From positions 16,301 to 80,300 of the forward strand of contig JAGORM010000001.1 of NCBI GenBank assembly GCA_018062815.1: 64,000 nucleotides of DNA, read 5' to 3'. The notes beneath the pieces are model-generated. The model was given only the letters and a program-made list of their open reading frames with translations. It had not been told where the DNA came from and made no database searches. This document shows positions 1 to 32,106 of the stretch, piece after piece; the first letter of the stretch is position 1, and each line of letters starts with the position of its first letter. The translations under genes were made by a program, and so were the position numbers. Source of the DNA: Candidatus Levyibacteriota bacterium (GTDB lineage Bacteria > Patescibacteriota > Microgenomatia > Levybacterales > GWA1-39-11).

Positions 1-1641
1 AGTTTCCACCTCTGAGGAATTTTGTTTCAGTAGGATTTGCATGGAAGAATTAGATAAAATTGCTTTACCGTAGTCTGAGGATAAAAAGTCTTCTATGTCC
101 TGGGTAAGAGTGGTAACACCCAAATAGTATTTTCTTGCGCGCTTAGCAATTCCCTGTAAAAATGCCGCGGAGTCAGGGTTTTTCATAAGGTACCATGCCT
201 CATCAACTATTAAAATACGTTTTTTAAGTTTAGTCCTAACCCTATTCCAGATAAAATCCAAAATCACCTGCATTGCTACAGGTCGAAGAGACTCCTCCAG
301 TTGTTTTATGGAAAAAACAGTAAGCTGATTTTTGACATCATAGTTAGTTTGTGAATTTAATAATCCGGCAAACCCTCCTTTAATGTATTTTTCCAGTCTA
401 AAAGCTAAATCCTTTGCGTCTGCTTCTTCCATGTTCAGAAGAGTTTTGTATAGATCCTCAAGAATGGGAGGCTCATTTCCAAAAGTTGAAGGGTCAGGAA
501 TTATACCTTTTTGCTTATAGCATAAAACCAGTGCTCGGTCTAAAATTGCCTCCTGGGTTGGGGAAAATTCGCCAAGCATAATCTTAAGAAGTGAGTGAAG
601 GGCTAAAAATTTTATTCCAAGCTGCGCTTCGGTTCTGTCGTCTGAAAGAAGGGCGAACGGATTAATTTTTACTTCAGAGTCCTTTGAGAAGGAGATATAT
701 TCTCCGTCAAGGCCGTGACAGAGGGCTTTATACTCATCCTCAGGGTCTATGATAAGAATTTCTGTGTCAAACATCATTTGGCGCAATACTTCAAGCTTTA
801 CTAAAAACGATTTTCCAGAGCCTGATTTTCCAAAAACAACCGAATTTGCATTTTCAAAGGAGAAGCGGTCCACAATGATAAGTGAGTTATTAAGCGTGTT
901 TACACCATAAAAAATGCCGTTTGGCTGAGAGATTTCGTAGGATGTGAACGGAAACGTTGAGGCAACGGATGTGGTGTCCATATTCCGTGTGATGAACAAT
1001 TTGTCCTCACCTAAAGGAAGTGTTGTTTTAAAACCATCTTCCATTTGAAGCGTTGCTGGTTTTATAACAAGTAAATTTGACGCAAGTAGGGAGGTCAGTT
1101 CATTAGTTTTTTTATCAAGCTCATCAACAGTTTTTGCGGAAAGCGTTACATAAAGCCCGAATTGAAAAAACCGCTCAAGTCCGCGCGCCAACTCCTCACG
1201 TAGAGCAATCGCGTCTTCAAGAGATGCTCTGACCTTGGGGTCAGGTTCTATGCCGTTTTTCATGTCTGATTCAATTGTTGCCTCCATTTCTCCGATTTTG
1301 CGTTTCAAATTGGAGAGAATATCCTTACTTTCGACAGGATATATAAACATAGATACATTCATGGTTTCCTTATAGTCTATGAGTATGGAGAGCCAGTTTG
1401 GGGAAACTTCACGCGGATAATCAATTACAATAAACGTTCTATAGAATGCGTCTCCTACCCTGATGTACTTAAAATCTACTTCAACTGATGAAGGAGCAAG
1501 AAGGTCTATCAGAGACACAGATCCGCTCTTTAATCTTTCAACTCCTCGTGCGACTTGTGGTTGTGTGCTTTCTGGTGTTCCATTAGCCGTTTGTGCAGTT
1601 GTATTTTTTTCTGTTTGTTTTTTCTTTCCAATTCCTAACAT
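1..1641 (-). CDS. virB4: VirB4/TrbE/CagE-family type IV secretion ATPase; C-terminus runs off the window start
   Basis: Manual minus-strand translation from ATG at 1641: MLGIGKKKQTEK... Walker A (FGKSGSGKSF) and Walker B (LIVDEAWYLM). The N-terminal region has the VirB4/TraC N-domain pattern. No stop codon before coordinate 1. Confidence 0.8.
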   Translation of the reverse strand, partial: MLGIGKKKQTEKNTTAQTANGTPESTQPQVARGVERLKSGSVSLIDLLAPSSVEVDFKYIRVGDAFYRTFIVIDYPREVSPNWLSILIDYKETMNVSMFIYPVESKDILSNLKRKIGEMEATIESDMKNGIEPDPKVRASLEDAIALREELARGLERFFQFGLYVTLSAKTVDELDKKTNELTSLLASNLLVIKPATLQMEDGFKTTLPLGEDKLFITRNMDTTSVASTFPFTSYEISQPNGIFYGVNTLNNSLIIVDRFSFENANSVVFGKSGSGKSFLVKLEVLRQMMFDTEILIIDPEDEYKALCHGLDGEYISFSKDSEVKINPFALLSDDRTEAQLGIKFLALHSLLKIMLGEFSPTQEAILDRALVLCYKQKGIIPDPSTFGNEPPILEDLYKTLLNMEEADAKDLAFRLEKYIKGGFAGLLNSQTNYDVKNQLTVFSIKQLEESLRPVAMQVILDFIWNRVRTKLKKRILIVDEAWYLMKNPDSAAFLQGIAKRARKYYLGVTTLTQDIEDFLSSDYGKAILSNSSMQILLKQNSSEVET

Positions 1642-1678
1642 ACTATAAAATAACCCCTTTCATTATGTGTAATAAGCG

Positions 1679-2293
1679 CTACACTATAATATTTTTAACG
1701 TCATTTGTTGAGAAGTCTACGTTCATAGTCGTTTGGTTGAAAAGTTCAAAAAATACCCGTCCTAATTCCTCTGCCTTAATGACTCTGCTTGAAAGACCGA
1801 TTCGTTCAATCTGCGTCATAACATTTGTTCTTTTAGTTGCAATCGCCTCTGTAATCCGCATTTCATGTGTCTTTTTGTTGCCTCCTGATGTTGGCCCTAG
1901 CTCTAATGCGTTAAATGGGATTACCACATATGTTTTTTTATCCAATAGTCCGTCTTCTTTTATAAGCTCTTGAATGAAGTCTTTGTATAGTCTTAAGTGT
2001 TCAGCTACTCGTGCGTTTTGAGTAATTGTAATTTTGTGATCAAGGGAGGCAACATATGATGAAAGGTCAATCCTTTTGGAGACAATTACAATTTGGATCG
2101 CAAAAGAAAGAGAATTTAAAAGAGACATGTATCCATATATGCGCGCGTTTTGTTCGTCTTGCGAGAGTAGAAAAAAATTGACGGATGATACTTCCAGAAT
2201 AGAGCATGCATTTTTTCCTTTCAGCAATACGGTATCATCCCGAATGTCTTCGATCTCAATAAATGATTGCGTTGTAGACTTAATTTTAGCCAT
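1679..2293 (-). CDS. Hypothetical T4SS-associated protein; the 204-aa sequence resembles a VirB4 N-terminal domain
   Basis: ORF track; lies between the VirB3-like gene and virB4. The segment IRDDTVLLKGKNACSILEVSSVNFFLLSQDEQ matches the VirB4/TrbE N-domain pattern. No ATPase motifs. Confidence 0.4.
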   Translation of the reverse strand: MAKIKSTTQSFIEIEDIRDDTVLLKGKNACSILEVSSVNFFLLSQDEQNARIYGYMSLLNSLSFAIQIVIVSKRIDLSSYVASLDHKITITQNARVAEHLRLYKDFIQELIKEDGLLDKKTYVVIPFNALELGPTSGGNKKTHEMRITEAIATKRTNVMTQIERIGLSSRVIKAEELGRVFFELFNQTTMNVDFSTNDVKNIIV

Positions 2294-2302
2294 GGACAGG
2301 TT

Positions 2303-3418
2303 TTATAGAGTATTATGTGCTACTCCAAATAATTCACGTCTTAATTTTTCGCGTTGATCAACGGATATTACCTGAATAGGTTGAGCCACTGATCCGTCAA
2401 GCGTTATTCTTTTGTCTTGAAAGTCCTGTTTTTTTAACGTGTCTTCCATGTGTAGCGTATACATTCCGTTTGGAAGCGGAGTTGCTGCTCTAAAAAAACC
2501 ATTTGCATCAGTTCGGAACGTTCTAAGTGGCACATTTTGAGTATCAAGCACTTCCACAATGATATGAGGTAGCGGTTTTCCTCTTGGGTCAAGTATTTTG
2601 CCTTGTAAAATGTTTGCTATGTCTATGCCCCCCACAGACACTTGGGGAGGTGCTACTTGAGTTGTAGGTGGCGCTTCATCTGCTGCAGTAGTAGGGGTAG
2701 TAGTTTGAGCAGTTTTAACAGCGGGTGCTGTTTGGTTTGTAGTTTCCTGTACTGGAGGAATCGGAGTTTCCGCATGAGGGGTAGATAGTTTCTGTGTTTC
2801 AACTTCTGACACATGCGTAGCGTATGCAGGAGAAGTAGTTATCGCAGAAGCTTTTTTTTCATCTGCAATAACTTTGGTTGTAGCGCCGCCTTGTTGCATA
2901 GAACCATCTTTAAAAAGGTTATTTACGTTTTCTACCTGAGATTTTTCATCAGCATCAGGCTTAAAGTAAGAGCTTGCAAGTTGATTAAAAAGCTTTGCTT
3001 TTTGTACAGCTGCGCTGTCCTCAGAGGTTGAGCTGGTAATGTTAGTGTGAGAAGGAGGAATAAATGTAAAGTATGGCATTTGCGTTCCGTGTTTTTTATA
3101 AATATACTGATTTTCCGCGGGAATTGCCTTAAAAAAGTTGAAAAGCATTTTGTCCATAGGCCTTCCGTCAATAGGTACAAATGCCAGGCAAAGACCAACA
3201 CCCCCTGAGAGAAACATAAATGGAAGCTTTAATAAAAATGGAATTGGAAAGAAATAGAACAAAAGTGCAAAAACCCCGCCACCTAAAAGATATAGAAACT
3301 GCTTTACCGTAACAGATCCTATAAGCCTAAATTTAAATCCTGTAACATCCTGCGGGATTGGGTGATTTTCCATATAGTACAGGGTATAACGTGAAACATA
3401 TGCTTTCAAGATTATCAA
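2303..3418 (-). CDS. VirB3/PrgI-like two-TM membrane protein with a Pro/Thr-rich linker and a C-terminal carboxypeptidase-regulatory-like beta-sandwich domain
   Basis: N-terminal FRLIGSVTVKQFLYLLGGGVFALLFYFFPIP hairpin, typical of PrgI/VirB3 proteins encoded just upstream of virB4. The C-terminus GKILDPRGKPL..TDANGFFRA..LPNGMYTL is CarboxypepD_reg-like. Confidence 0.45.
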   Translation of the reverse strand: MIILKAYVSRYTLYYMENHPIPQDVTGFKFRLIGSVTVKQFLYLLGGGVFALLFYFFPIPFLLKLPFMFLSGGVGLCLAFVPIDGRPMDKMLFNFFKAIPAENQYIYKKHGTQMPYFTFIPPSHTNITSSTSEDSAAVQKAKLFNQLASSYFKPDADEKSQVENVNNLFKDGSMQQGGATTKVIADEKKASAITTSPAYATHVSEVETQKLSTPHAETPIPPVQETTNQTAPAVKTAQTTTPTTAADEAPPTTQVAPPQVSVGGIDIANILQGKILDPRGKPLPHIIVEVLDTQNVPLRTFRTDANGFFRAATPLPNGMYTLHMEDTLKKQDFQDKRITLDGSVAQPIQVISVDQREKLRRELFGVAHNTL

Positions 3419-3621
3419 AATAGGTCAAAAAAAAGATAATCTGTGCGTAGCGTGAAAAGCGTTGTGTTTTCTTGACATGCGCTTATGTTTTGCCGTACCA
3501 TGAATAGTAGAATGTTTGTAGCGTTTCTGTTATTTTGATGTCAAGAAGAGTAGCATAAAGAATCCTATAATATCAGAATATAAATAGGTAAAAGACTCTT
3601 ATGTAGGAATATTTTATAAAC

Positions 3622-3966
3622 ATGGAATTTACACAGGAAAAGAAAAAAAAGGTTGAGAAAATGATTGTTGATTCAATGATAGATGCGGTAGGCGCAGGAT
3701 TTGTCCAGGAAGACGCTCTCCCCAATATTTCTGAGTTTGTATTAAGCAGGATGGATACTATAAAAAATGAAGAAGAATTAGTCGCATTCCTTATTGAGCT
3801 TTCTCAGAAATGGTCATTTTTCTTGCCGATTGAACGCTTCATTGAAGGGGAAGCAAAGGAAGTAGAAGATAGAAAATCAGTAGATAAGGCAGAAAATCTT
3901 ATAAAAGGTGGACAATTAGATCAAGCGCTGCAGGTTTTAAAAGCTGCAGAGAAAGGAGGACTTTAA
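3622..3966 (+). CDS. Hypothetical acidic protein (114 aa)
   Basis: ORF track; contiguous with the downstream gene (5-nt gap). No recognisable motif. Confidence 0.4.
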   Translation: MEFTQEKKKKVEKMIVDSMIDAVGAGFVQEDALPNISEFVLSRMDTIKNEEELVAFLIELSQKWSFFLPIERFIEGEAKEVEDRKSVDKAENLIKGGQLDQALQVLKAAEKGGL

Positions 3967-3970
3967 GTTT

Positions 3971-5917
3971 ATGTCAGCACCAACATCACCAGACATGGGG
4001 AAAATAAAACAAGAGGCTATTGTACGAGCAATAACCGGTAAAATTGAATTGACTGATGCTGAGAAGGGGGAAAAACAGCATGAAATGGCGGCAAAGATTG
4101 CCGAGAAAAGCTTGAGAAAAAAACGCGGAGATGAGGGTAATGATCACGCTTTTATGGAAGGGTTAAGAAATCAAAAAAAAGGAGTACAAGAAATCCCCAC
4201 AGGAGATGAGGTAAAAAAGGTAATTGAAGGTGCACATATTAGTGCTGAGGATAAAAACATTGCAGATCAAACAGAGGAAGTACTGCGGGCAGTTTTCTCA
4301 GGGGATAAGGCATACTTAGAGACTCAGGCAGCAAGAACAAGCGATTTTTTAATTGCTCCAATTCGGGAAATGATGGGAAGGGACCCTGTCTTTAAAGAGA
4401 TAGCAGATGGTATTGACAAGAGCCCTGCTTCTCTAAACCAATGGGTTGATTTTGTCACGGAGCAGTTAGATTCAGGTCGCAGACCAGGAGATAACTTGTT
4501 TATGGATGATCTTCAGGCAAAATACAAAACGTTTATGGAGAAGGACAGAGAAGATTCCGTAAGTACTACGGTGATTCAAAGAAAACTTGAAAGGCAGTCA
4601 GCAAAGGAAAAGGCATTAAACGATCAGTTTGAATCAAAATTAAAAGAGGCTGGTGCGAATAGGGATAGGAAAAATGAATTTGCAAGTACAGAAAAGGGTG
4701 CAGGAAAAGATTTAATAGATTTAACACAGAAAGCTGATGATGAGAAGAATGATAGAGAGCGGATAGAGCGTGAGCTTGGCGCACTAAACTCAGATAGGGC
4801 AAGAGCACAAGAAGACGCTCTTAGCCAGAATAACCTCATAAGAAAAGACGCTGAGGTAAAGTTGCGTGAATTAAGAGATAGTATCTCTAAAAAGGAGATA
4901 GAGCTGACTCCATTTAAACAAACAATTGATAAAAAAAATGCCTTGATTTCTGAAAGAGACGGATTGGATTCTGCATATACAAAAATTTTAGACGATCAAG
5001 ATAGTCTTGAAACTCAAATTGAAGTTGCGGGTAAAGAAAAAACAAAGATAGAGGCGCAGCTTGCAAATGCCGGAGGCGCAAAAGATAAAGAAAACTTTAT
5101 AAAGGAGTTTAAGGCTATTATGGGAGACGCGTTTAGAGACACAATGCTTGCCAGATTTGACGCGGAGCAGGCAGGCGTCAGTGAATCCCTGAAGGAGTTT
5201 ATAGAAGCAGCGCGCGATCCGCACGTTAAGGCAGCATTAGAACAACTTTGGGACAGTCATAATCGTTGGAAGGATTGGGATTCGGCTTGGAAGACCCGGC
5301 TAAAGATTCCTTATGGTCGTAAAGAGGAGCCTAAGATGCAAAAAGATCTTATGAGGGAAGATGTAGATATTTTACTCAAAGAGGGTCCTGAAGGTTTTAT
5401 GAGAAGATTTCTTCATCAAAAGATGGATCCTGATACAAAAAACGCAAGTCATCCTTACGGAATGGTGTACTCAAAAGAAAAGATAGATGAACTGATTTCA
5501 GATAAAGACTTTATGGATGCCGTACAGCCAAAGGCTGCAGGATTATTGGTTCGTCAGGCTGTTAAGGCAGGTGTGCTGTCTGAGCGTCAAATGGCAGAGT
5601 TGAGAGATACAGAATGGGGAATGAGCGCAATTGAAAGCGCACTCATGATGGACAAAACAGCTGTAGAGAGCGGTAGGGCACACCAGGCAATAGACTACAT
5701 AAAGAAACACCCAAAGTTTGCATGGTGGATGCTTTTCACTATCTTGTGGCCGCCGGCAGGGTTATTTGTTGCGGGAGCATATGCAGGTAAGGAAGTTGTC
5801 TCAGGGATGTTTTCAGGCAAAAATAAAGATCACGGAGGTCATGATAAAGCGCCTGTAAATGTTGAGCCGCCATCTTCACCTCAGGCAGTACAATTGCACC
5901 CCGCGCCTGCTCATTAG
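3971..5917 (+). CDS. Large coiled-coil, tail-anchored protein (C-terminal TM WWMLFTILWPPAGLFVAGAYAG)
   Basis: 648-aa ORF rich in K/E/D/R heptad-like segments with a single C-terminal hydrophobic helix. Only short ORFs, inferred spurious, lie on the opposite strand. Confidence 0.55.
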   Translation: MSAPTSPDMGKIKQEAIVRAITGKIELTDAEKGEKQHEMAAKIAEKSLRKKRGDEGNDHAFMEGLRNQKKGVQEIPTGDEVKKVIEGAHISAEDKNIADQTEEVLRAVFSGDKAYLETQAARTSDFLIAPIREMMGRDPVFKEIADGIDKSPASLNQWVDFVTEQLDSGRRPGDNLFMDDLQAKYKTFMEKDREDSVSTTVIQRKLERQSAKEKALNDQFESKLKEAGANRDRKNEFASTEKGAGKDLIDLTQKADDEKNDRERIERELGALNSDRARAQEDALSQNNLIRKDAEVKLRELRDSISKKEIELTPFKQTIDKKNALISERDGLDSAYTKILDDQDSLETQIEVAGKEKTKIEAQLANAGGAKDKENFIKEFKAIMGDAFRDTMLARFDAEQAGVSESLKEFIEAARDPHVKAALEQLWDSHNRWKDWDSAWKTRLKIPYGRKEEPKMQKDLMREDVDILLKEGPEGFMRRFLHQKMDPDTKNASHPYGMVYSKEKIDELISDKDFMDAVQPKAAGLLVRQAVKAGVLSERQMAELRDTEWGMSAIESALMMDKTAVESGRAHQAIDYIKKHPKFAWWMLFTILWPPAGLFVAGAYAGKEVVSGMFSGKNKDHGGHDKAPVNVEPPSSPQAVQLHPAPAH

Positions 5918-5960
5918 AAAAAAAGACACTTTCAGGGGAAACGTTTATGTTGTTTGTATT

Positions 5961-6308
5961 TTATTGTGTTTTAGGAGGACTCAACAATTGATTTAACCCT
6001 ACTCCCGTGAACTGAGACAAGAGATTTATCATGACAAATGACAGCATGATTATCACTAGCCCAATAATTGCGTAAGTGAGTCTTTTTCTTGCGTTGTCCA
6101 CTTTTTCTTTATCTCCTGAAGATGTTACATATTGGTAGCCTGAGTAAATGATAAGAAATACGGCAACCACGCCGGATAAGATGAGCGCTGCATTAATTAC
6201 ATTTTGTAGTACAACCCACACGCAAGATAAGGTAGCCACCCCTGTTCCGTTTGGGTCGCCTTCAATTTTTTTGACACATGATCCCCAATCTTTTGTAAAT
6301 AAATCCAT
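5961..6308 (-). CDS. VirB2/TrbC-like T4SS pilin (hairpin two-TM pilin)
   Basis: Motif YSGYQYVTSSGDKEKVDNARKRLTYAIIGLVIIMLSFVMIN: pilin-loop signature S-x-GD-x-x-K-x-x-x-A(R/K) between two hydrophobic helices. Confidence 0.65.
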   Translation of the reverse strand: MDLFTKDWGSCVKKIEGDPNGTGVATLSCVWVVLQNVINAALILSGVVAVFLIIYSGYQYVTSSGDKEKVDNARKRLTYAIIGLVIIMLSFVMINLLSQFTGVGLNQLLSPPKTQ

Positions 6309-6369
6309 ATGCTTTTAGCATAAAACAAATATGAGAGATAATTCAAGGGGAAAGGCAAGTAGTGCAGTA

Positions 6370-6834
6370 CTATTGATTTACCGAGGGACTAGGGCCATTT
6401 CGAAGTGAAGGTATTTCAAATCCAGTAGTAAGGTAATTACCTGTAAAGATGTAAAGGACAGCGTTTATAATAACGTAGGCTAGTATAACTATAATAAGTC
6501 CCACAATAGCCGCAACTATAGTAGAGCGTGCAGTATCAATTTTCCCTTTATCTCCTCCTGAAAGAATCCACCTGACGCCGCCATACAAAAGGAAAATAAG
6601 GGACAGGACAATTCCAATAACTATAATAGCGTTTATAATAAAAGCAATCAGTTCATTTGGTGTCACATCAATATTTCCGATTGATTTAGGTGACTTAATT
6701 ATTATAGGTTCAATAGTATCAGCAAAGACTGGAGTTGCTGTAACTGACATAAGAAGCGTACCAAAAGAAACTGACGCGGTATTTATAACTTTTTGCAGAC
6801 TCATATAATTATTAGAACATGTTTTTTTTTGCAT
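6370..6834 (-). CDS. VirB2/TrbC-like T4SS pilin paralog with signal peptide and short N-terminal extension
   Basis: LLYGGVRWILSGGDKGKIDTARSTIVAAIVGLIIVILAYVIIN, the same hairpin-pilin signature. Signal-peptide-like N-terminus. Confidence 0.6.
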   Translation of the reverse strand: MQKKTCSNNYMSLQKVINTASVSFGTLLMSVTATPVFADTIEPIIIKSPKSIGNIDVTPNELIAFIINAIIVIGIVLSLIFLLYGGVRWILSGGDKGKIDTARSTIVAAIVGLIIVILAYVIINAVLYIFTGNYLTTGFEIPSLRNGPSPSVNQ

Positions 6835-6848
6835 GTCAAGAAGCGTTA

Positions 6849-7175
6849 TTATTTTCCTAACTCTTGCAGTACCTGCGCACCCAGAATAAAGCCTATAATT
6901 CTTACAATAGTAAATGACAGAAGGATTATGATAAGCCCTACAATTGAATACGTGATAGTACGCCTAGCGCGGTCAATTTTAGTTTTGTCTCCTTGAGACG
7001 TAATCCACAAAACACCTGCATACAGCATAAAGATGAGAGAGGCAATAATTCCTATTACAACTATCATTCCTAATCCAAAACTAATAATATCAGACGGAGC
7101 ACTTGCTCCTGACGGGATGTTTTCAGGAGTTTGTACCTCTCCATACCCTGGTAGTGTTAAAGATAAGTATTTCAT
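6849..7175 (-). CDS. VirB2/TrbC-like T4SS pilin paralog
   Basis: MLYAGVLWITSQGDKTKIDRARRTITYSIVGLIIILLSFTIV signature. Confidence 0.65.
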   Translation of the reverse strand: MKYLSLTLPGYGEVQTPENIPSGASAPSDIISFGLGMIVVIGIIASLIFMLYAGVLWITSQGDKTKIDRARRTITYSIVGLIIILLSFTIVRIIGFILGAQVLQELGK

Positions 7176-7176
7176 A

Positions 7177-8802
7177 TTATTGAAGGCCAGGTATTCGTAA
7201 AATGTTTACACCAATAAACTCAAGTATTGCAATTGAGAGAATAATAAATATTAATCCTGTGATTGCAGCGGTTATTTGCTCACGTGCTTGTCCCACTTTT
7301 TCTTTATTTCCCGCGGATGTCATAATGGTGTATCCTGCGCGGATAAAGAAGAGAACAGCAGCTACTCCTCCGATAGACAGCACTATGGTAAATATGTCGC
7401 GTACAAAAAATTGAGGCTCAGTGCTGATTTTTATCCCAAGAGCAGTTGGAATTTTTTTACAATACCCAGTTGCTTTATCAATATCAACAGGATCGCAAAG
7501 TGGTCGGGGAGGGAACCATGGAATTGTGGCTCCCAACTCCTTGCCATATGGGTCTTTTATGATTGTACCTATTGAGCCTTCTCCTCCTCCACGGGCTATA
7601 GTAAATGTTATAAAATACAGAGTGAAATCGTTAGGCTCACAGGTGATACCATTTTTGTTTTTCTTTAAATCTCTCCCGTCTTTAATTTTTAATATATATT
7701 TCCCCTCAGTAAGTGTTGCAATAACATTTCCGTCAGAGTCTTTTGATTCAGGGCTTAAAAAAATGGTGGCTTTTCCTGTGCTTGCTTTTGGGTCTGCGCC
7801 TTTTTCAACAAGAAGGCATTTAGGCTCACTTCTATAGTCATTATCCATTCCCTCAATCTGCATCCAGTAGTCATTATATATGTCCTCATTTTTCCCCGAT
7901 TTAATGTTTCTTCCTTTCAGCTCTACTAAAAAATCCCAACCTTTTTTCATGTTGTCGGTATTAAGAAGTTTATTTTTCTCATCTCCCTTAGGGAGTACAA
8001 CTTCAGGGTAAAAATGACTGACATAAAAGTCTGCGTGCGCTTTTACGTCATTCGGATTGACGCTCTTACTATCTTTCCCCTGTGACAGATAAACATGATA
8101 AGTTTTTCCTGCATGGAACCAATCTCCATCTACCAGGTTAGTGCTTTCTGTGCAGTCTTCTTTTAGAGTTTTTTCTCCGTCCCCGCACAGCTTTGGTAGT
8201 ATGATAGTCCCGTTTGAAACTGTTGCTTCATTCCAATCGTCATCGCTGCAGTCCTCCGGCTTACTTTTAAGGCAATAAAAATATTTGGAATTTTTTGTAG
8301 GATTAGAAATATTTTTAAAATACACTGAAACAAAAGGAACGCTTTCGTCTATATATGGCTGGTTATTTTTCTTATCTTTTTCAAGTCCACGTGTAGCACC
8401 TAACCCTTTGCAAATGTAATAAGATTCAGAAGTTATACAGTCTTCAAGTGTGGGGTTATTGATTTCATCCAAAAATCTGTCTTCGTTAGTGTTCCCTTGT
8501 TCATCAGTGCAGGAGGTATTTGTAAAAAGATTTGCATCATCAATAGTTGCCGGAAATTTGCCGCCTAAAGTTCCCAGGTATGTGCAAATCGTGTTGCACG
8601 CTGTAGGGTTATCACCGGTAGCATATACGGTTGAGAGATCTTTCATTGAAACCAGAGTTCCCTTTACGGTTTTTTGTACGTTTTTTTGACCGGTGCAGAC
8701 ATCACTATAGTCACGTCCGGTAAATACAACACCTGCCGCGAATGTAGGGGGAACGTAGTACAGACAGATAAGAAGGAAGAAAAAAAGGATAAGTTTCTTC
8801 AT
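7177..8802 (-). CDS. Secreted Cys-rich ~450-aa extracellular domain fused to a C-terminal VirB2/TrbC-like pilin module; candidate tip adhesin or minor pilin
   Basis: Signal peptide MKKLILFFFLLICLYYVPPTFAAG and many Cys residues. C-terminus IRAGYTIMTSAGNKEKVGQAREQITAAITGLIFIILSIAIL carries the pilin signature. Confidence 0.6.
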   Translation of the reverse strand: MKKLILFFFLLICLYYVPPTFAAGVVFTGRDYSDVCTGQKNVQKTVKGTLVSMKDLSTVYATGDNPTACNTICTYLGTLGGKFPATIDDANLFTNTSCTDEQGNTNEDRFLDEINNPTLEDCITSESYYICKGLGATRGLEKDKKNNQPYIDESVPFVSVYFKNISNPTKNSKYFYCLKSKPEDCSDDDWNEATVSNGTIILPKLCGDGEKTLKEDCTESTNLVDGDWFHAGKTYHVYLSQGKDSKSVNPNDVKAHADFYVSHFYPEVVLPKGDEKNKLLNTDNMKKGWDFLVELKGRNIKSGKNEDIYNDYWMQIEGMDNDYRSEPKCLLVEKGADPKASTGKATIFLSPESKDSDGNVIATLTEGKYILKIKDGRDLKKNKNGITCEPNDFTLYFITFTIARGGGEGSIGTIIKDPYGKELGATIPWFPPRPLCDPVDIDKATGYCKKIPTALGIKISTEPQFFVRDIFTIVLSIGGVAAVLFFIRAGYTIMTSAGNKEKVGQAREQITAAITGLIFIILSIAILEFIGVNILRIPGLQ

Positions 8803-8843
8803 ACCTTAATCATAGGGGTTTGCCCTTTCTAAAGTCAAGAAAT

Positions 8844-10175
8844 TTATGGAACAAAGCGGTATCCTCGGCCCTTTATAGTTATAAGGTGTGTCGGGTTATT
8901 CGGGTCTTCTTCAATCTTTCGTCTGACTCTGTATATAATTTGGTCTAGTGCTTGGTCAGTTACACCTTCCCGTGTTTTTTCATCTGACCATACGGATCCA
9001 ATTATTTCCTCTTTTGTGCATACCTTATCAGTGTTTTGAATTAAAAATCTCAGCAGCTTAAATTCTGATGGAGAGAGAACATCAGTTAGTGATTCGTTTC
9101 CGTCTTTTATCTCTTGAGTGTTTGCGTCAAGCGTTATTTTTTCAGTTGCAGGATTTGGGAAGTGAGACAAATTTTTTAAAAACAAAGGTATTTGAATCTC
9201 CCCATTTTGGATTAGATAAGAGCGTTGTAGAAAGGAATCCGCGGAAGCTCCAGCAGGGGATTTAAGAAGTATTTTTTGCTCTATCGGTATTAGTGAGTTC
9301 CAGATTTCAATCAATGCTCCTTGAATTGCTGCTTTTGACAGCAAAAAAGCTGATAAGTCTTCATATTTTTCTTCCTCCCCAAGTACTGTTTCAAGTGCAA
9401 TTCTGGACAATTTTCCGTGTCCTGCGGTGAGTTTTAGGATTTCTTTTTTTGTATTTTCTGACGCTTTTCTTCCGCTGGTTTTTTCAAGATAGGAAAATCT
9501 AAAGTCATTAGTTTCAGGATCTGAAATAGGTAGAAATACCTGGTTTCCTACAACAAATTCATAAAAGTCAGAAAAAATAGAGGGTTCCAGTAGATCTTCC
9601 AGGGGGCGGGTAGTTGAAAAAACCGCTGAAAATCTGTATTTTGCCCTGTTTCTTAATACCCGTAAATTAGTAAAGAAATGTTCATTTATGCAAGGAAAGT
9701 ATGTGTCAAATCTGTCAAAAAGTAAGACTATAGTTAGCTCCCGTTCTATGGATAAGTAGTCAATTGCGCGTTTTAATGCCTGGAAAAGGATTAATTCATC
9801 CTGAAAAGAAACCGCTTCCTTGAGAATTGTGTTTATAGCATCTTGATCTTTGTCCATTTTCCGCTCTGACAGGGAATAGGAAAGGGAGATTAGGATAAAT
9901 TTCACCAATTCATAAAAACTTCTGCCCTTTATTTCTGACAAGTCCATGTACACAAAGTGGTACCACTTATAGTTTTCCCCTAAGTGTAAGGTTCTGAGAG
10001 CGTTGTTATACGCTAAAAGCCTTAGAGTGTTTGACCGTCCTACGCCGGGTAGGCCTAATACCTGTGCTGAGTTCCCTTTTTTAATATATGAAAGAATTTT
10101 ATCTATCTCCGGTTTCCTTGCGGACGGAGGGTATAAAGACTCAAAATGCACAGGTTCAGAGGTTGGAGTAGCCAT
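8844..10175 (-). CDS. Transcriptional regulator: N-terminal AAA/STAND-type NTPase fused to a C-terminal OmpR/PhoB-type winged helix
   Basis: Walker A GLPGVGRSNT and Walker B-like IVLLFDRFD. C-terminus SPSEFKLLRFLIQNTDKVCTKEEIIGSVWSD...ITIKGRGYRFVP is the trans_reg_C signature. Confidence 0.6.
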   Translation of the reverse strand: MATPTSEPVHFESLYPPSARKPEIDKILSYIKKGNSAQVLGLPGVGRSNTLRLLAYNNALRTLHLGENYKWYHFVYMDLSEIKGRSFYELVKFILISLSYSLSERKMDKDQDAINTILKEAVSFQDELILFQALKRAIDYLSIERELTIVLLFDRFDTYFPCINEHFFTNLRVLRNRAKYRFSAVFSTTRPLEDLLEPSIFSDFYEFVVGNQVFLPISDPETNDFRFSYLEKTSGRKASENTKKEILKLTAGHGKLSRIALETVLGEEEKYEDLSAFLLSKAAIQGALIEIWNSLIPIEQKILLKSPAGASADSFLQRSYLIQNGEIQIPLFLKNLSHFPNPATEKITLDANTQEIKDGNESLTDVLSPSEFKLLRFLIQNTDKVCTKEEIIGSVWSDEKTREGVTDQALDQIIYRVRRKIEEDPNNPTHLITIKGRGYRFVP

Positions 10176-10248
10176 ATGTTAGTTTATTGTAAGCTACCTA
10201 TAAGGATAATATCAAGTTTGCAGGCGTATTTTCTCATATACTTGCCTC

Positions 10249-13200
10249 ATGAATGAAAGATTGTTGCCACAAGAATTGACAGCGGGAAGGGTATCTTCTA
10301 CACTTAATGTAAGGAGTACTATGCCAGAACCACAGAAAGAAGAATTCAATATTCCCAAAAAAATTGATAGACAGCCACTTGTTGCGGGAAGTACTTCTCC
10401 TCGTCCAGAAACTATGCAGGAGCTTATGCGTGGGCAGGCAGAACGTGAGGCAGCCCGTGCCATAGTGGAGGAGGCCAGGAAACAAGGAAAATCATTGTCT
10501 GAGGATCAAAAAAAGATTGTTTTTGAATCTGGTTTTAAACCAACTATTTATGGAGGTGCTGATGTTCCTGAGAATGATGACTATAATCCAGACAATGGAG
10601 AAGGTGAGGAAAATCAGAGGCCAGAGGTTGCAAGAAGGGGTTTTGAATTGAGACCTCCACGAGGTGTAGCTGCCGACAAACAACTTCTTGATGAAATAGA
10701 AAAATTTAATAATGTCAGTGAATTAGGTGTTGATTTTGATGATCTTAAACGCGAGGCTGAAAAAATTATGGATCTTCAGTCCTCAGACCCAAACAACCCA
10801 ATTACGTCAGAGCAAAAACAGGACCTGATAAGACAGCTTTCAAAAAAAGGACAAGAAATAGCGGCGGCAAGAATGAATAACCCGGATAGATTTGGGTTTT
10901 ATCTTGAAACGCAGGATTTGCGTGAATTAGATAGTGACCCTATGTCATGGTTAGATTCTCAATTCGGTCAAATATACGACTTGTCTAAGGCGGGAAGTGA
11001 GTTGGATTCTCCTATTTTGCAACGTGTACAGACAGAGGTGGGAGAGGCATCCGCTTATCTTCAGAAAAAATTTGGAAAATTCAGAAAAGAAGGAATAGAA
11101 AATGCAGCAGACATTGAGCGCGCAAATAGAGAGAGTAAGTTGCTACTAGAGTTTAATGAAACGTTTGCTATCAGGTTAAACCTTATTTTTGCAAGAACGG
11201 CAATTGACCAAAGGGGTATGGAGCAAATACAGGGAGCGGTAGGAAGGCTAAGGACATTAGGATTTGCAGGAGCGCAAGCTTTTGATAACGGGGCAGTTGG
11301 CGCTATGTATAACCGTATGGAAGCGATGCTTGGAAACTTGCGACTAGCTGAGGGAGGGCGTGAGCATCATCTTAACCCTGCATCCTTAAACAAGCTGCAG
11401 GATAAAACTATAGATGAGCAGATAGAGCTTGCAAAAAAGGGAGTAGGCATATTTGCAGGTAAATATAAAGAGATCTTATCAGATCCAAAAAAGCAGAATA
11501 ATGCTGATGATGTTTTAAAGCGGGAGATTACCAGATCAGTTAGAACGGCTTATGACATTTTAGTTGTATCTCAGAGAGTTGCAATTGTTGCTGCGAGGGG
11601 TAATTTTAGAGGAGACAGACAGCAGTACTTTTCTGATAACGGAGGAGCATTTGCAGTATTCAATTTAGAGCAAATGACAATTAACAAGTGGGATTTATTA
11701 AATCATGAAGAGCAGGAGTTCTTTGATTTTCTCAAGCTTGACATGGCAATTAATAATAAAAAGGGGATAGATGTCTCAAAGCTAACACGTGAACAATTGT
11801 TGGATTTAGGGGGGAGATTGTTTAGGGATTTATATGTGGTTCCTGATTTTTATTCATCCTCATGGAGAATGAATGGAATGAGAGACCAATTGGGGCGTGT
11901 AATTCAATATAAAGCGGAGAACGATAAAATGATTGAAAAGTTTATCGAAAGTTCTAATTTTACTCCGGCTGATGAAAATCTCAGAAGTTTGCAGGAGCAA
12001 ATGAGGACACAGATCCAGAATTACATGCAGGTATGGGATGAACTGAACCCTGTGCAGGGAAGGGTACAGGGAGACAGGGAAATAGCACAAAGACAAATTT
12101 CCCGTCAGATGTTTGAGAAGACCTTAACGCGTGAGCAAAGAGAGTTATGCCTTAATACACTTACACAGGATGAGAAGGCGAATGTTTTAAACACTACAAT
12201 AAAAAAGGCTGGTACACAATTAGGGAAAGAGATTGGAGATTTTGCCTTATTTGTACAGCTAAAACAGAGCTTGGGGCATTTAGGGCACAATGCTGGTTCA
12301 GCGCAGGAAATAAAGGATTATAGAGCTGGGGTTTGGGGAAAGATTCAAAAATTTAAAACAGAAGATATTATGCAGTTGATAAGAGGCCGGGCACGACCGG
12401 ATATATATACGGAAGACTACAATAATCTACGTGAGTTGTATACTCTTTTTGAGAGAAACGATTCAGAATTGGGGATATTAACAAATGAGCAAAAAGAATT
12501 GCAAAAAACGGGGGGGATAGAGGCATTTCATACATATGATAAATTTATTGAGAAATATGGGTCTGTAATACAGGCAATACGTCAAGATGCGATGCGAAAC
12601 GGTTTAACCGGTCCAGAGCAGGTAGATATGGCTAACTTAAGCCCTCGACATGTGGAGATGGTGAACAGAATGTTAGGAGGGAATGGGGCAGCGGTTACTC
12701 TCCAAAATATTTATAAGGACATGAATGGGTTTATAAATCGTCATAATATTATTAATGATTTTGTTACAAGTCAAAAGTATATAGATCTTTACAATAGAGT
12801 AATAAACGTAGAGGATGTAATGCTCGACACTCTTGAATCAATACCTGAAAATGCAGGATTCCAGAAGTTGTCAGAGTATTTTACTGCAGAATCAGGGGCA
12901 GATGCTTTGAAACGCAATTTTAATGATATAGGAAATGCAGTTAATGCAGGAAACGCATTCATTAAATTTGTTACAACTGAAGATAAGGAGGGCAGATTTA
13001 AAGAATCCAAAGCTATGAAAAGCGCTGTGGAGGCATATAATGGTCGTACAAATGGAGCTGAAGTTATGCGATTTACTTACGGGACAGAATTGTTATACGC
13101 AACTCAATATTATTGGATTAACACCTTGCGTTTAGGCGCACTGCCATTCAGAAAGCCAAGCTCCATGAAGCAGGAGCATTATGGTATTGGTGCAAAGTCT

Positions 13201-13434
13201 TTGACACGACAAGATGTACGAGGGGATTTGGATCATCATAAAACAGAATTTGTAGGGCGCGGATCCGATGCTGATAAGTGGTTTCTTCAACTGGAGGAGT
13301 TGACGGGAACAGATATGAAGTCCACAATGAAAAGAAACGCGCTAACGCTTTTGATATACGCGTTTTTAGGGATTGTTATAGGAGCTCCGGTAGGTGCAGC
13401 CTCCGCAGCATTAGCAGGAGCACAGAAAGGATAA
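10249..13434 (+). CDS. Giant (1061 aa) mostly helical hypothetical protein with a C-terminal TM anchor
   Basis: ORF track; divergent from the regulator gene. Disordered acidic N-terminus, no enzymatic motif. C-terminal LTLLIYAFLGIVIGAPVGAASAALAGA helix. Confidence 0.5.
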   Translation: MNERLLPQELTAGRVSSTLNVRSTMPEPQKEEFNIPKKIDRQPLVAGSTSPRPETMQELMRGQAEREAARAIVEEARKQGKSLSEDQKKIVFESGFKPTIYGGADVPENDDYNPDNGEGEENQRPEVARRGFELRPPRGVAADKQLLDEIEKFNNVSELGVDFDDLKREAEKIMDLQSSDPNNPITSEQKQDLIRQLSKKGQEIAAARMNNPDRFGFYLETQDLRELDSDPMSWLDSQFGQIYDLSKAGSELDSPILQRVQTEVGEASAYLQKKFGKFRKEGIENAADIERANRESKLLLEFNETFAIRLNLIFARTAIDQRGMEQIQGAVGRLRTLGFAGAQAFDNGAVGAMYNRMEAMLGNLRLAEGGREHHLNPASLNKLQDKTIDEQIELAKKGVGIFAGKYKEILSDPKKQNNADDVLKREITRSVRTAYDILVVSQRVAIVAARGNFRGDRQQYFSDNGGAFAVFNLEQMTINKWDLLNHEEQEFFDFLKLDMAINNKKGIDVSKLTREQLLDLGGRLFRDLYVVPDFYSSSWRMNGMRDQLGRVIQYKAENDKMIEKFIESSNFTPADENLRSLQEQMRTQIQNYMQVWDELNPVQGRVQGDREIAQRQISRQMFEKTLTREQRELCLNTLTQDEKANVLNTTIKKAGTQLGKEIGDFALFVQLKQSLGHLGHNAGSAQEIKDYRAGVWGKIQKFKTEDIMQLIRGRARPDIYTEDYNNLRELYTLFERNDSELGILTNEQKELQKTGGIEAFHTYDKFIEKYGSVIQAIRQDAMRNGLTGPEQVDMANLSPRHVEMVNRMLGGNGAAVTLQNIYKDMNGFINRHNIINDFVTSQKYIDLYNRVINVEDVMLDTLESIPENAGFQKLSEYFTAESGADALKRNFNDIGNAVNAGNAFIKFVTTEDKEGRFKESKAMKSAVEAYNGRTNGAEVMRFTYGTELLYATQYYWINTLRLGALPFRKPSSMKQEHYGIGAKSLTRQDVRGDLDHHKTEFVGRGSDADKWFLQLEELTGTDMKSTMKRNALTLLIYAFLGIVIGAPVGAASAALAGAQKG

Positions 13435-13446
13435 AAAGTAAAAATA

Positions 13447-15162
13447 TTATCTTCCAAACATTCCCCTAAGGAATTTTTTGCCTGCTTCTGCTGCGTGGAG
13501 TTGACCATCTTTGCCATACTCTGCTTTTGCTCCAAATGCCATTTCCTTAACCCCACTAATTCCTTTTCCTCCTACTGCCTGAGAAGCACCAAATGATGTT
13601 CTAATATCTTTCAACCCAAAGTCCATAGCGCCAACTGCTTTTCTGGTACGGTCTAATATGCTTGGCATGGATATAATAAAGCCAAAACCTATAAATGCAG
13701 CCAGGGCAGGGCTTCCACCGACAGCGTCTCCTATAAGTGGAGGAGAAAATAGTCCGCCCTGATTCCCCACATTACTCATAATAGTTTTTCCAAGTAGTAT
13801 TACCCCAAATGCCATAGGAAAGACTGATAAATGGCCCATAAGATGCCTTATCCAAGTAGAAAATCCTAATTTACTTCCCGGAAATATTCCGGCAGTTATC
13901 CAAAGCGGGGCAACTATTACGTCAATTAACACATAAATAAAGGACTTAATAAGCGTAAACCATACCCTAAATAATGAGAAGATAATAGCAATAAGGATAA
14001 TTAAAAATGTAACAATTGTAAAAAGACTGATAATTGCCGCCCTGAAGAACGATTCCACAAAATTACATCCACCCCCCGCAAACATTCCCCCTATTGGAGT
14101 ATCTCTTAACCATCCTCCCAATCCTGGTACCCATCCCAATGCCCCTAACCCTACTGTTGCTCCTACCTTACCCAGGTCTACCACCCCGCACCCAATAGAG
14201 CTAACGGCGTTAAAGGGGGTGAAGAAGACCTGGAAAAAAGATGAAATGGTTGACTCTAAAAAGTCTATGGACATATTTCCTAAAACCTTACTAACCCCAA
14301 ATGAAGTTTGTCCTGCAATCCCGATTATCCCTGGGATATGAGTAATACCAATTACGTTTGGAGTATCTATGCTAAAAGATTTGTTTACAACGCCAAATAC
14401 GGTGGATGAGGTATTAACATTTGTAGGTATAAGACTATTAAAAGTTAAGATAACAAGATAAAGGGATACATACATAAGGTCTATAAGAAGTCCTGCAATT
14501 GCGTATGAAAAAGTGACTAAAATAAGAGCTACTATTAGTTTTGGAATTTGGTTTTGAATACTCATAACAGTACGCGCATCAATTTTTACTCTAAACATGA
14601 TTGCAAGTCCAACAATGGTAAATGCCAAGACAAACGCGAGATAAGAAATATCTCTAAATCGTGCCCAAATTCCAAGAAGAGGGCGCAATCTATCAAATCC
14701 TACCCCGGTTTCCTCTGGATTATTTTGTGCATAAGCGCTGCGTGCTACCCCAAAGTTTCCAGCCATGTATGTTGCATAATCTACCCCTGAAACAGGCAGC
14801 ATAAATGTTTCTCCTATAAGTCTTCCCATAATTTGCGTTGCTCCACCTCCTTGGGTTTCATATCCTATTTGCCCACTATTTACATCTACTCCCAAACATG
14901 TTTTTTTTGGGTCTAGGGGGTTATATCCTGAAAGTATGCAGACAGTGCTTGATAAGGTGTTGATAATGGCTGATTGAGTAAGAGTATTAAGATTTTGAGG
15001 AGCTTGAGAGTTAACGTTTCCGTATAATATTTGACTGTTCGTAGTTGGGGCAGTGGTAGTTGTGGGCGTAGTAATTGTCGGTGCTTGAGCAAGAATGGGT
15101 TTTATGCTGCTTATTACAAGAAAGAAGACAAGAACGTATAGAATATGTTTTAGTTTATTCAT
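13447..15162 (-). CDS. VirB6/TrbL-like polytopic membrane protein (start moved to MNKLKHILYV)
   Basis: Signal peptide followed by a Thr/Pro-rich segment and at least 8 predicted TM helices. Lies in the T4SS-like locus, convergent with the 1061-aa gene. Call rests on architecture only. Confidence 0.45.
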   Translation of the reverse strand: MNKLKHILYVLVFFLVISSIKPILAQAPTITTPTTTTAPTTNSQILYGNVNSQAPQNLNTLTQSAIINTLSSTVCILSGYNPLDPKKTCLGVDVNSGQIGYETQGGGATQIMGRLIGETFMLPVSGVDYATYMAGNFGVARSAYAQNNPEETGVGFDRLRPLLGIWARFRDISYLAFVLAFTIVGLAIMFRVKIDARTVMSIQNQIPKLIVALILVTFSYAIAGLLIDLMYVSLYLVILTFNSLIPTNVNTSSTVFGVVNKSFSIDTPNVIGITHIPGIIGIAGQTSFGVSKVLGNMSIDFLESTISSFFQVFFTPFNAVSSIGCGVVDLGKVGATVGLGALGWVPGLGGWLRDTPIGGMFAGGGCNFVESFFRAAIISLFTIVTFLIILIAIIFSLFRVWFTLIKSFIYVLIDVIVAPLWITAGIFPGSKLGFSTWIRHLMGHLSVFPMAFGVILLGKTIMSNVGNQGGLFSPPLIGDAVGGSPALAAFIGFGFIISMPSILDRTRKAVGAMDFGLKDIRTSFGASQAVGGKGISGVKEMAFGAKAEYGKDGQLHAAEAGKKFLRGMFGR

Positions 15163-15259
15163 AGGGCAGGTAGTTTTAGTATGGCTCAGAATGCAATAAA
15201 AAGTCAAGGAACATATAAGTAGGGGTTTTAATTGACAACTATATATAAAACAGGGTATC

Positions 15260-15820
15260 ATGCGACTAGGTATGAAATTAAAAATTGCCATCCTGTTTCT
15301 TATAAGCTTTGTTTTTATATTTGTGAAAACAGCCGCAGCGCAGGTAATAGAACTTTCCCCAACCATTCCTGTATCCACCCCTACCGCAGTTGTTCAAACT
15401 GTAGACTACCAGCTTCCATATCCAGGTCTTCTCCCAGATAACCCTTTATATATATTTAAGGCGGCACGTGATAAGGTCGTAGAATTTCTTATTTCAGACC
15501 CGGTTAAAAAAGCAGAATTTTATTTACTCTCATCAGATAAAAGAGTTAACACAGGTTATTATCTTATTATAAAAGGGAAACATGACATGGGGATGTTGTA
15601 TATTTCAAAAAGTAATAGTTATTTAAGTCTTGCAAATTCTGCGACTGCACAAAGCGGAGAAAATGGAAAGAGTATCCGTGACAGATTAGACTTATCTGTT
15701 AAAAAACACATAGAGTTACTAAACTCTTTAACTAAAAGAATTGATAAAAAAAATAGCACAAAACTTGCAAATGAGATTAAGAGACTAGAAAAATTTCAAA
15801 CACTTATTAATAAGAAGTAG
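15260..15820 (+). CDS. Secreted hypothetical protein (signal peptide, K-rich C-terminus)
   Basis: ORF track; MKLKIAILFLISFVFIFVKTAAAQ signal-like N-terminus. Confidence 0.4.
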   Translation: MRLGMKLKIAILFLISFVFIFVKTAAAQVIELSPTIPVSTPTAVVQTVDYQLPYPGLLPDNPLYIFKAARDKVVEFLISDPVKKAEFYLLSSDKRVNTGYYLIIKGKHDMGMLYISKSNSYLSLANSATAQSGENGKSIRDRLDLSVKKHIELLNSLTKRIDKKNSTKLANEIKRLEKFQTLINKK

Positions 15821-16026
15821 TACTGTCTTCAGCCTTTCAAATCTCACATCTGGAATTATTTGAAATTATGTCTTGTCCCTCTGGGAATTGTCTCATTTTT
15901 GTGTCTAACGGTTTATAACTAGAACACATTAAATACTCAGCGGAAAAATGAAAAATCTCTCAAATTTCTTACATAAAAAAAGTGAGGCTAAAAAAAGACC
16001 TGCATGTTTTTGATACAGTAGTTACC

Positions 16027-28590: not shown

Positions 28591-28635
28591 AACAATTTTT
28601 ATCTATTCTTACAACCAGGGGGAAGAAATTGTGGG

Positions 28636-28707
28636 TGGGCGCGGCAGGATTTGAACCTGCGACCAATTGTGTATAAGACAACCGCTCTACCACTGAGCTA
28701 CACGCCC
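28636..28707 (-). tRNA. tRNA with anticodon UAU (tRNA-Ile reading AUA)
   Basis: Reverse complement GGGCGTG-TA-GCTC-AGTGGT-AGAGC-G-GTTGT-CTTATAC-ACAAT-TGGTC-GCAGG-TTCAAAT-CCTGC-CGCGCCC-A forms a cloverleaf. The 7-nt anticodon loop is CU-UAU-AC. No encoded CCA. Confidence 0.75.
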
Positions 28708-28762
28708 AAAAAGGAAACTGTGGTAAATTATAGCACGAGAAAGGAAAATATTCGATTCGTAA

Positions 28763-32064: not shown

Positions 32065-32106
32065 CATTTTTTTTAATTTCCTCGTTTTTTGGTATAATCC
32101 CCTTTC

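Follow-up and report, generated by a model that had tools for sequence, protein, structure and literature searches.

Gene content of the locus

The DNA analysed here, referred to as the window, is a stretch of 64,000 nucleotides from Candidatus Levyibacteriota bacterium (Patescibacteriota; Microgenomatia; NCBI GenBank assembly GCA_018062815.1, contig JAGORM010000001.1, positions 16,301 to 80,300 of the forward strand). Positions 1 to 15820 hold a block of type IV secretion system (T4SS) and pilin genes, which was analysed by an open reading frame (ORF) listing with six-frame translation, followed by Pfam and NCBIfam scans. A first-pass annotation, made from the letters alone, had described the block as encoding a VirB4 ATPase, a VirB3/PrgI-like protein, four tandem VirB2-type hairpin pilins, a VirB6/TrbL-like polytopic protein, an AAA-ATPase/winged helix-turn-helix (wHTH) regulator, and two large proteins with C-terminal anchors, and the scans found every one of these genes where it had been placed. 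The features of the block are as follows, with E values given after the family names (TM, transmembrane).

1 to 1641, minus strand: VirB4-like ATPase, the first 547 of 697 aa lying in the window; P-loop_TraG 4e-35, AAA_10 3e-16
1679 to 2293, minus strand: TrsD/TraC-like protein, 204 aa; NCBIfam TrsD 2.2e-6 over the full length, precomputed PF26593 TraC-like match
2303 to 3418, minus strand: PrgI/VirB3-like membrane protein; PF12666 1.5e-7 at residues 20 to 98, PF13620 CarboxypepD_reg 1.4e-7
3622 to 3966, plus strand: small acidic protein, 114 aa, net charge -7, no family match; upstream partner of the 648-aa protein
3971 to 5917, plus strand: orphan 648-aa protein, all-alpha coiled coil, 35% of residues charged, C-terminal segment hydrophobic and conserved
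5961 to 6308, minus strand: VirB2-like pilin, 115 aa; PF18895 4e-13, hairpin alignment
6370 to 6834, minus strand: VirB2-like pilin, 154 aa, signal peptide; PF18895 2.9e-7, hairpin alignment
6849 to 7175, minus strand: VirB2-like pilin, 108 aa; PF18895 6.7e-6 (26.5 bits, 0.1 below the cutoff of 26.6), hairpin alignment
7177 to 8802, minus strand: pilin fusion, 541 aa, first gene of the array; PF18895 1.6e-8 at residues 467 to 529
8844 to 10175, minus strand: one-component regulator; C-terminal OmpR/PhoB winged helix (Trans_reg_C 8e-20), N-terminal P-loop NTPase of the AAA_16/STAND type
10187 to 10218, minus strand: conserved promoter motif upstream of the regulator, CTTGATAT-N3-CCTnACAA-N4-CTnACAA, with -35 TTGATA and -10 TACAAT
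10249 to 13434, plus strand: orphan 1061-aa hydrophilic protein with a C-terminal TM helix at residues 1030 to 1048; divergent from the regulator and convergent with the VirB6-like gene
13447 to 15162, minus strand: polytopic membrane protein, 571 aa, signal peptide; VirB6-like candidate
15260 to 15820, plus strand: secreted DUF5667 protein, 186 aa; PF18915 1e-5, slightly below the cutoff; divergent from the VirB6-like gene

The secretion ATPase and its adjoining genes

For the locus comparison, the best 80 loci were taken from a full-length VirB4 scan of GTDB species genomes, and a tblastn search of all window proteins against these loci is the basis of the architecture and presence counts given here. 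About half of the 80 VirB4 loci carry placeholder titles, for example, "uncultured Gammaproteobacteria," and statements on taxa cover the informative titles only. These titles are all from Patescibacteria, mostly Levybacteria, followed by Gottesmanbacteria, Chisholmbacteria, other Microgenomatia, and one Paceibacterota, with VirB4 identities from 89% down to about 52% across the 80 loci. Four metagenomic contigs encode the exact 204-aa protein, are 99.2 to 99.99% identical to the window, and extend past its start; contigs L001 and L002 are among those with this identity.

The full-length VirB4, taken from its copy on L002, reaches 422.6 bits against a cutoff of 325 with the NCBIfam CD1110-family VirB4 model, the family to which NCBI also assigns PrgJ of plasmid pCF10. 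Together with the best 80 loci, this score points to an MPF_FATA-type VirB4 nested among those of Patescibacteria.

The 204-aa TrsD-like protein, whose gene is present in 74 of the 80 loci, has no match in our local Pfam copy. On the Mycoplasma VirB4 model, it covers positions 100 to 232 and the 697-aa VirB4 covers positions 292 to 892 in collinear order, and in this alignment the smaller protein looks like the detached N-terminal domain of a split VirB4. Next to it lies the VirB3/PrgI homologue, so that both genes adjoin virB4. The PrgI-like protein, which likely starts at M16 (position 3373), exceeds the Pfam cutoff for PF12666 (32.3 versus 27 bits); its two TM helices are followed by a linker rich in Thr and Pro and, at the C-terminus, by a CarboxypepD_reg beta-sandwich. 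This two-domain architecture recurs in the distant Microgenomatia locus L089, and both halves are kept in 71 of the 80 loci.

The pilin array

The four tandem genes between 5961 and 8802 all match PF18895 ("T4SS_pilin"; E values from 4e-13 to 7e-6), three of them above the Pfam gathering score. Their common core is a hairpin of a TM helix, the motif GDKxKxxxAR, and a second TM helix, which also emerges as a four-copy DNA repeat (family D1). At 29 to 34% pairwise identity, the four proteins form a divergent VirB2-like array near virB4.

In the first pilin of the array, a signal peptide is followed by a Cys-rich ectodomain of about 440 aa (15 Cys), for which no PDB relative was found, and the pilin hairpin is confined to the C-terminus. 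Matches to this 541-aa fusion were obtained in 34 of the 80 loci, covering the ectodomain in the closer loci and only the C-terminal hairpin in the more distant ones; it heads the array in the 18 loci with a detectable pilin array among the 21 listed. The hairpin (7177 to 7440) also matches NCBIfam NF045849 (9e-6), the Mbov_0395 family of pilin-like conjugal transfer proteins from Mycoplasma integrative conjugative elements (ICEs). This match suggests that VirB2-like hairpins may exist in monoderm MPF_FATA relatives and bears on the origin of Candidate Phyla Radiation (CPR) pilins.

In Gottesmanbacteria-type loci, genes for bAvd/23S_rRNA_IVP four-helix bundles interleave with the T4SS pilin genes or adjoin the VirB6-like gene (L086, 7398 to 9317; L087, 7440 to 9359; L090, 8974 to 9336). 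The bAvd genes resemble accessory proteins of diversity-generating retroelements, a hint that in some lineages retroelements may target the pilin-fusion proteins. The genes in L086 prompted us to consider such a retroelement for the window as well; this reading was dropped, as positions 1 to 16000 hold no template/variable-repeat pair and the Pfam-scanned ORFs of the window include no reverse transcriptase.

A VirB6-like candidate

The polytopic protein had been assigned a start at 15378 in the first-pass annotation. A start at the Met at 15162 is more likely, giving 571 aa, since the longer version overlaps the divergent DUF5667 gene. Its family comprises at least 349 clusters, of which all with a source name come from Patescibacteria and none carries a Pfam domain; the exact protein is annotated in a Candidatus Levybacteria metagenome-assembled genome.

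The VirB6/TrbL assignment of the first-pass annotation holds at the level of the fold and fails at the level of the sequence. The AlphaFold2 model (36 homologues; mean predicted local distance difference test [pLDDT] score, 68) has TrwI/VirB6 of plasmid R388 as its four best Foldseek PDB matches, and the predicted polytopic helical bundle resembles those of TrwI and DotA. The sequence yields no Pfam match at an E value below 0.1, and hence none to TrbL; a profile of the 36 homologues searched against the PDB gave only a chance match to an ECF transporter, and hhalign against pCF10 PrgH gave a probability of 0.3%. The predicted structure thus lends moderate, fold-level support to a divergent VirB6. 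The neighbouring DUF5667 gene adjoins a VirB6-like gene in L085 too; its link to the T4SS is uncertain.

A conserved regulator and its promoter

Of all genes around it, the regulator is by far the best conserved: 967 homologues were found, with full-length identities above 50% across Levybacteria. Among the 33 informative Levybacteria loci, which have a pilin array and enough flanking sequence, 27 carry it as the next gene upstream of the array. The protein carries the winged helix of OmpR/PhoB response regulators, but its N-terminus is a P-loop NTPase with no receiver domain, and no histidine kinase was found among the Pfam-scanned ORFs. The AAA-ATPase/wHTH description of the first-pass annotation agrees with this architecture: the AAA_16 match is sub-threshold in the window copy and recurs in 17 of 30 homologues (best E value, 3.5e-4).

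The promoter motif, a -35/-10 pair with an internal direct repeat, is present in 19 of 22 regulator upstream regions and lies within a 73-bp divergent region common to the regulator and the 1061-aa gene. A position weight matrix built without the window copy scored the window site at 35.4 bits, compared with a maximum of 17.8 bits in 20 shuffles. The second-best match (3516 to 3547, 16.2 bits), upstream of prgI, was considered as a shared operator and dropped because its score is within the shuffle range. Hexamers resembling a -10 element lie only about 6 to 10 nt from the ATG of the regulator and the 1061-aa gene (TACAAT-N10-ATG and TATACT-N6-ATG; 10230 to 10248 and 10176 to 10190), suggesting leaderless or near-leaderless transcripts for both. 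These ATG-proximal elements are conserved in related loci.

Two large orphan proteins and a small acidic partner

Neither the 648-aa nor the 1061-aa protein has Pfam, NCBIfam, or PDB sequence relatives, and a comparison rejected the idea that they are related to each other. The 648-aa protein is modelled by AlphaFold2 as long helices (pLDDT, 74) and has only 26 relatives among 1.84 billion representatives. Its gene is the fastest evolving of the locus, with identities of 25 to 34% in genomes where VirB4 is 85 to 89% identical. Fold and profile matches to SMC, Rad50, gp26, and IpaB are to generic coiled coils, and we treated them as compositional. The C-terminal anchors that the first-pass annotation saw in both large proteins are borne out by the TM helix of the 1061-aa protein; in the 648-aa protein, the case is weak, its moderately hydrophobic C-terminal segment falling below the hydropathy threshold here and above it in most positional counterparts.

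The 648-aa gene and its acidic partner occupy a slot that is bounded by the pilins and prgI. Here, 23 of 44 Levybacteria loci have a charged ORF of about 100 to 137 aa paired with a large charged one, and the pair can point either way; the large ORF measures about 570 to 740 aa in 18 loci and about 980 to 1240 aa in 5, and most of the large ORFs end in a hydrophobic segment. For the 1061-aa protein, 5.8 billion proteins yielded 11 relatives, with no Pfam match in any of the 11 family members. In four more distant Microgenomatia loci (L085, L086, L089, and L090), its position is taken by a protein of 936 to 1748 aa without a Pfam match. The 1061-aa family profile fails to detect these four counterparts, and homology among positional counterparts is detectable only within sub-lineages.

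The 648-aa, 1061-aa, and 114-aa proteins might be lineage-specific genes that merely reside in the locus, perhaps cytoplasmic tail-anchored scaffolds with another role. The two large proteins lack a signal peptide and any domain tied to T4SSs, and the 114/648 cassette is missing from many loci, can be inverted, and is absent from L089. On the other side, in each of the four distant loci the VirB6-like gene and the regulator are separated by a giant hydrophilic protein, its gene shares the conserved divergent promoter region with the regulator, and the pairing of a small and a large charged ORF recurs despite the turnover of their sequences. We regard this reading as possible, though not as the favoured explanation. 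A more speculative and rather doubtful proposal is that the large proteins without signal peptides (the 648-aa protein with its acidic partner, and the 1061-aa protein) are T4SS cargo or host-contact factors; that the P-loop/wHTH regulator would, in addition, switch them on together with the pilins is a joint proposal we hold with equal reserve. If true, the Patescibacteria T4SS would gain its first candidate cargo in the large proteins and its first candidate control switch in the regulator. The large proteins were also considered as parts of a defence system, a reading given up with no PADLOC matches.

Chromosomal context and gene order

On the metagenomic contigs that extend past the window start, VirB4 is followed leftward by an 814-aa protein with a weak SLT_3 lysozyme-like C-terminus (E value, 0.003), three small secreted or membrane proteins, and then dnaN and dnaA. 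The latter two lie about 4 kb and 5.3 kb from the VirB4 stop, or about 4.5 and 5.7 kb beyond the window start, placing the block on the chromosome near dnaA. The rest of the window is of a housekeeping nature, with nrdR, class II ribonucleotide reductase, transfer-messenger RNA (tmRNA), tRNAs, uvrD, femAB, lytR, murJ, lepA, purF/N/D, and pilN/O. The 814-aa and 571-aa proteins were compared as possible paralogues, and this was rejected.

The gene order in the 80 loci is stable, running from the regulator through the large pilin, three to four further pilins, the variable slot, PrgI-CarboxypepD_reg, and TrsD to VirB4 and the 814-aa protein. In the four distant Microgenomatia loci, the VirB6-like gene, the giant opposite-strand protein, and the regulator directly precede the pilins, and in L089 the VirB6-like gene, giant protein, regulator, pilins, PrgI, TrsD, and VirB4 form one compact block. 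The first-pass annotation had proposed a comparison of the flanking synteny; both the gene order and the housekeeping flanks proved to be conserved in other Microgenomatia.

The VirB4, TrsD, PrgI, pilin, and regulator genes in positions 1 to 10175 are all on the minus strand. The cumulative GC skew rises along the plus strand and dnaA lies to the left of the window, so that their transcription would run head-on to replication.

A further T4SS-type ATPase, which the first-pass annotation had overlooked, lies 13 kb outside the block:

28763 to 31195, minus strand: VirD4-like ATPase of the type IV coupling protein (T4CP) class, 810 aa; TraG-D_C 1e-5, TrwB_AAD_bind 2e-5, SXT_TraD 9.5e-13, CD1115 VirD4-like 2.4e-6

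N-terminal TM helices, a Walker A motif, and the TraG-D_C/TrwB domains place the protein in the VirD4 type, with scores below the equivalog cutoffs, and it is only a possible partner of the T4SS. The gene adjoins a tRNA-Ile gene and a cluster encoding SpoIID, a 225-aa protein, and a 600-aa protein; in L089, this cluster is present without the T4CP.

The VirD4-like gene, and the fact that the VirB4, TrsD, and PrgI families are best known from Gram-positive conjugative plasmids and ICEs, would suit an integrated conjugative element or its decaying remnant rather than a core cellular system. No relaxase, integrase, or transposase domain was found in the Pfam-scanned ORFs of the window or of the 8 kb beyond its start, in line with the first-pass annotation, which had seen none in the window. 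Flanking repeats were not found there either, nor were long terminal or oriT-like repeats. The GC content of the block is similar to that of the first 32 kb of the window (about 0.36 to 0.41) and only slightly above the 0.32 to 0.38 of the remainder, and its place beside dnaA/dnaN among retained housekeeping flanks argues in the same direction. The conserved order across Levybacteria loci, with a VirB4 identity that declines gradually from 89% to about 55%, fits vertical descent, and we consider a conjugative element extremely improbable. The first-pass annotation would have been contradicted by an ATPase failing to hit VirB4 models, by "pilins" from unrelated families, or by an ICE whose relaxase and integrase lay just beyond the window: the ATPase matches VirB4 models, the pilins match PF18895, and no such ICE was found on the left side, the side examined.

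Comparison with known systems

The closest likeness is to the T4SS of Patescibacteria themselves. A T4SS cluster with essential pilin genes was described in the saccharibacterium Southlakia epibionticum by Wang et al. in 2023 (PMC10633639), being closest to Gram-positive conjugative T4SSs and lacking a relaxase. In a survey of 3,035 CPR genomes, Quinonero-Coronel et al. (2025; PMC12102498) found a monophyletic Patescibacteria VirB4 clade nested in MPF_FATA, with TrsD, PrgI/VirB3, and VirB2 arrays of 2 to 11 genes, the arrays being especially common in Microgenomatia. T4CP genes were usually far from virB4, relaxases were almost absent, and proximity to dnaA/dnaN was frequent. VirB6 was called "scarce" in Microgenomatia, for which the authors suggested extreme divergence, and VirB3 was seldom linked to virB4. 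A 2025 review (PMC12857230) gives the same picture and speculates on a pilus conduit. Epibiotic growth requires the T4SS in S. epibionticum, the only species tested (PMC12102498, PMC10633639, PMC12857230).

The present locus shares with S. epibionticum (SEML1_0006-0019) and the 2025 survey the MPF_FATA-type VirB4, TrsD, PrgI/VirB3, and the divergent VirB2-like array, as well as the lack of a relaxase, a T4CP encoded elsewhere, and the chromosomal position near dnaA. It differs from the survey in that PrgI adjoins virB4 and a fold-level VirB6 candidate lies at a distance of 11 genes. PMC12102498 does not discuss several features seen here: the regulator, the fusions of pilin with ectodomain and of PrgI with CarboxypepD_reg, and the variable giant proteins.

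The prgH-I-J-K-L region of the Gram-positive MPF_FATA plasmid pCF10 has the same succession of PrgI, a CD1110-family VirB4, and a large protein. It differs in having a relaxase, a T4CP, the LPXTG adhesin PrgB, and the PrgK hydrolase, and in lacking pilins; the present locus has pilins, no relaxase, and a VirB4 split into TrsD and VirB4, and no homologue of PrgH, PrgK, or PrgL was detectable in it. The hairpin pilins are shared with the VirB-type T4SSs of R388 and Agrobacterium, which have a VirB2 pilus and a VirB6 platform; the 571-aa model comes closest to TrwI/VirB6 and to Legionella DotA, with no sequence similarity to VirB6/TrbL. VirB5, VirB7, VirB8, VirB9, VirB10, and VirB11 are missing here, in a cell presumed to be monoderm. 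The T4SS of Mycoplasma ICEs (Mbov_0397 VirB4, Mbov_0395) is similar in two respects: its long VirB4 model is matched by the TrsD-like protein and VirB4 together, and the 541-aa pilin hairpin matches the Mbov_0395 model, all scores being below the curated cutoffs. Mycoplasma ICEs differ in being mobile and carrying their own DNA-processing genes.

Interpretation and proposed mechanism

Gene content, chromosomal context, synteny, and the absence of mobility genes are observed at this locus. From the sequence, we read the block as the vertically inherited, origin-proximal T4SS of a Candidatus Levybacteria genome, belonging to the published Patescibacteria T4SS clade, with a probability of roughly 0.88. 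This clade descends from monoderm MPF_FATA conjugation machinery whose DNA-processing part was lost. Because the window matches every published feature of the Patescibacteria T4SS, the core is not new and the interpretation is supported. The first-pass annotation had arrived at a minimal pilus or contact apparatus, chromosomal, without a relaxase, and derived from a T4SS, in episymbiont-like bacteria with small genomes, which is the published view (PMC10633639, PMC12102498, PMC12857230). Its description of the system as under-described is outdated for the core, which was described between 2023 and 2025, and still apt where the regulator and large proteins are concerned.

By analogy with R388, pCF10, and the Saccharibacteria, we lean towards a contact apparatus that forms a pilus. 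The pilin hairpins would insert into the membrane, where VirB4 and its detached TrsD-like N-terminal domain would be anchored by the PrgI/VirB3-like protein. VirB4 would then extract the hairpins from the membrane and polymerise them on the VirB6-like platform of the 571-aa protein, and the product would be a pilus or a short conduit reaching the host cell. The ectodomain-bearing pilin and the wall-spanning C-terminal domain of PrgI would face outward, and the Cys-rich ectodomain of the first pilin would serve as an adhesin or determine specificity. From the compact conserved promoter region, the P-loop/wHTH regulator would autoactivate the regulator-pilin operon and probably also drive the divergent 1061-aa gene. 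The large, fast-evolving hydrophilic proteins, one with a small acidic partner, would be the best candidates of the locus for translocated or host-facing factors.

Several points weigh against this picture. No VirB8-like protein was identified, and there is no clear VirB1-like protein, the gene downstream of virB4 offering only its weak SLT_3 match. This 814-aa protein was also considered as a PrgK homologue, which was rejected, with no similarity to PrgK and no informative PDB match. The VirB6 assignment comes from fold scores on a model of moderate quality, where sequence profiles fail, and the large proteins are tied to the system only by their conserved position and the shared promoter region. 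To our knowledge, a T4SS pilus has not been seen experimentally in Patescibacteria, and no Levybacteria have been cultivated.

Instead of exporting effectors, the machine might serve chiefly to bring in DNA or other macromolecules of the host, as the archaeal Ced and Helicobacter ComB systems do. VirB4 is weakly similar to the CedB and CedD models, yet the CedB score is 42.8 bits against a cutoff of 700. The missing relaxase and a comFC-like gene at 21983 to 22687 would fit import, and comF, recG, and radA have been reported near T4SS genes in the ABY1 class, and the literature speculates on uptake through the pilus (PMC12102498, PMC12857230); in S. epibionticum, however, the T4SS is essential for growth and comEC is dispensable (PMC12857230). 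The only DNA-binding product of the locus is the regulator, and with purF, purN, and purD in the genome, nucleotide scavenging may matter less here. We therefore judge a mainly importing machine to be quite unlikely.

As a T4SS of the Patescibacteria clade, the locus adds no new kind of system and contributes several modest accessory features that were not described before. These provide several leads: for Microgenomatia, where VirB6 is reported to be scarce, a fold-level VirB6 candidate family; a dedicated regulator that is conserved and has a promoter motif that can be recognised; a pilin carrying a large fused ectodomain, which might determine host specificity; and hypervariable giant proteins, conserved in position, that could be cargo.

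Other features of the window

On either side of the VirD4-like gene, ARAGORN predicts a tRNA-Ile with the anticodon TAT (28632 to 28708) and a tRNA-Ser with the anticodon ACT (31980 to 32065), and Rfam confirms tRNAs at both places. These anticodons are unusual for bacteria. Genes resembling purF, purN, and purD lie at 57057 to 60394 on the plus strand; most Patescibacteria would not be expected to have genes for de novo purine synthesis.

A second pilus system, unrelated to the T4SS, is represented by PilO- and PilN-like type IV pilus assembly genes (53637 to 54793, minus strand), which adjoin a gene for a 458-aa Big_13/fn3 surface protein (51910 to 53286). Two further genes on the plus strand encode a 731-aa protein with Kelch repeats and a Peptidase_C39_2 domain (35787 to 37982) and a 273-aa protein in which an ATP-cone is fused to an Mrr_cat nuclease domain (38049 to 38870), an odd domain pairing.

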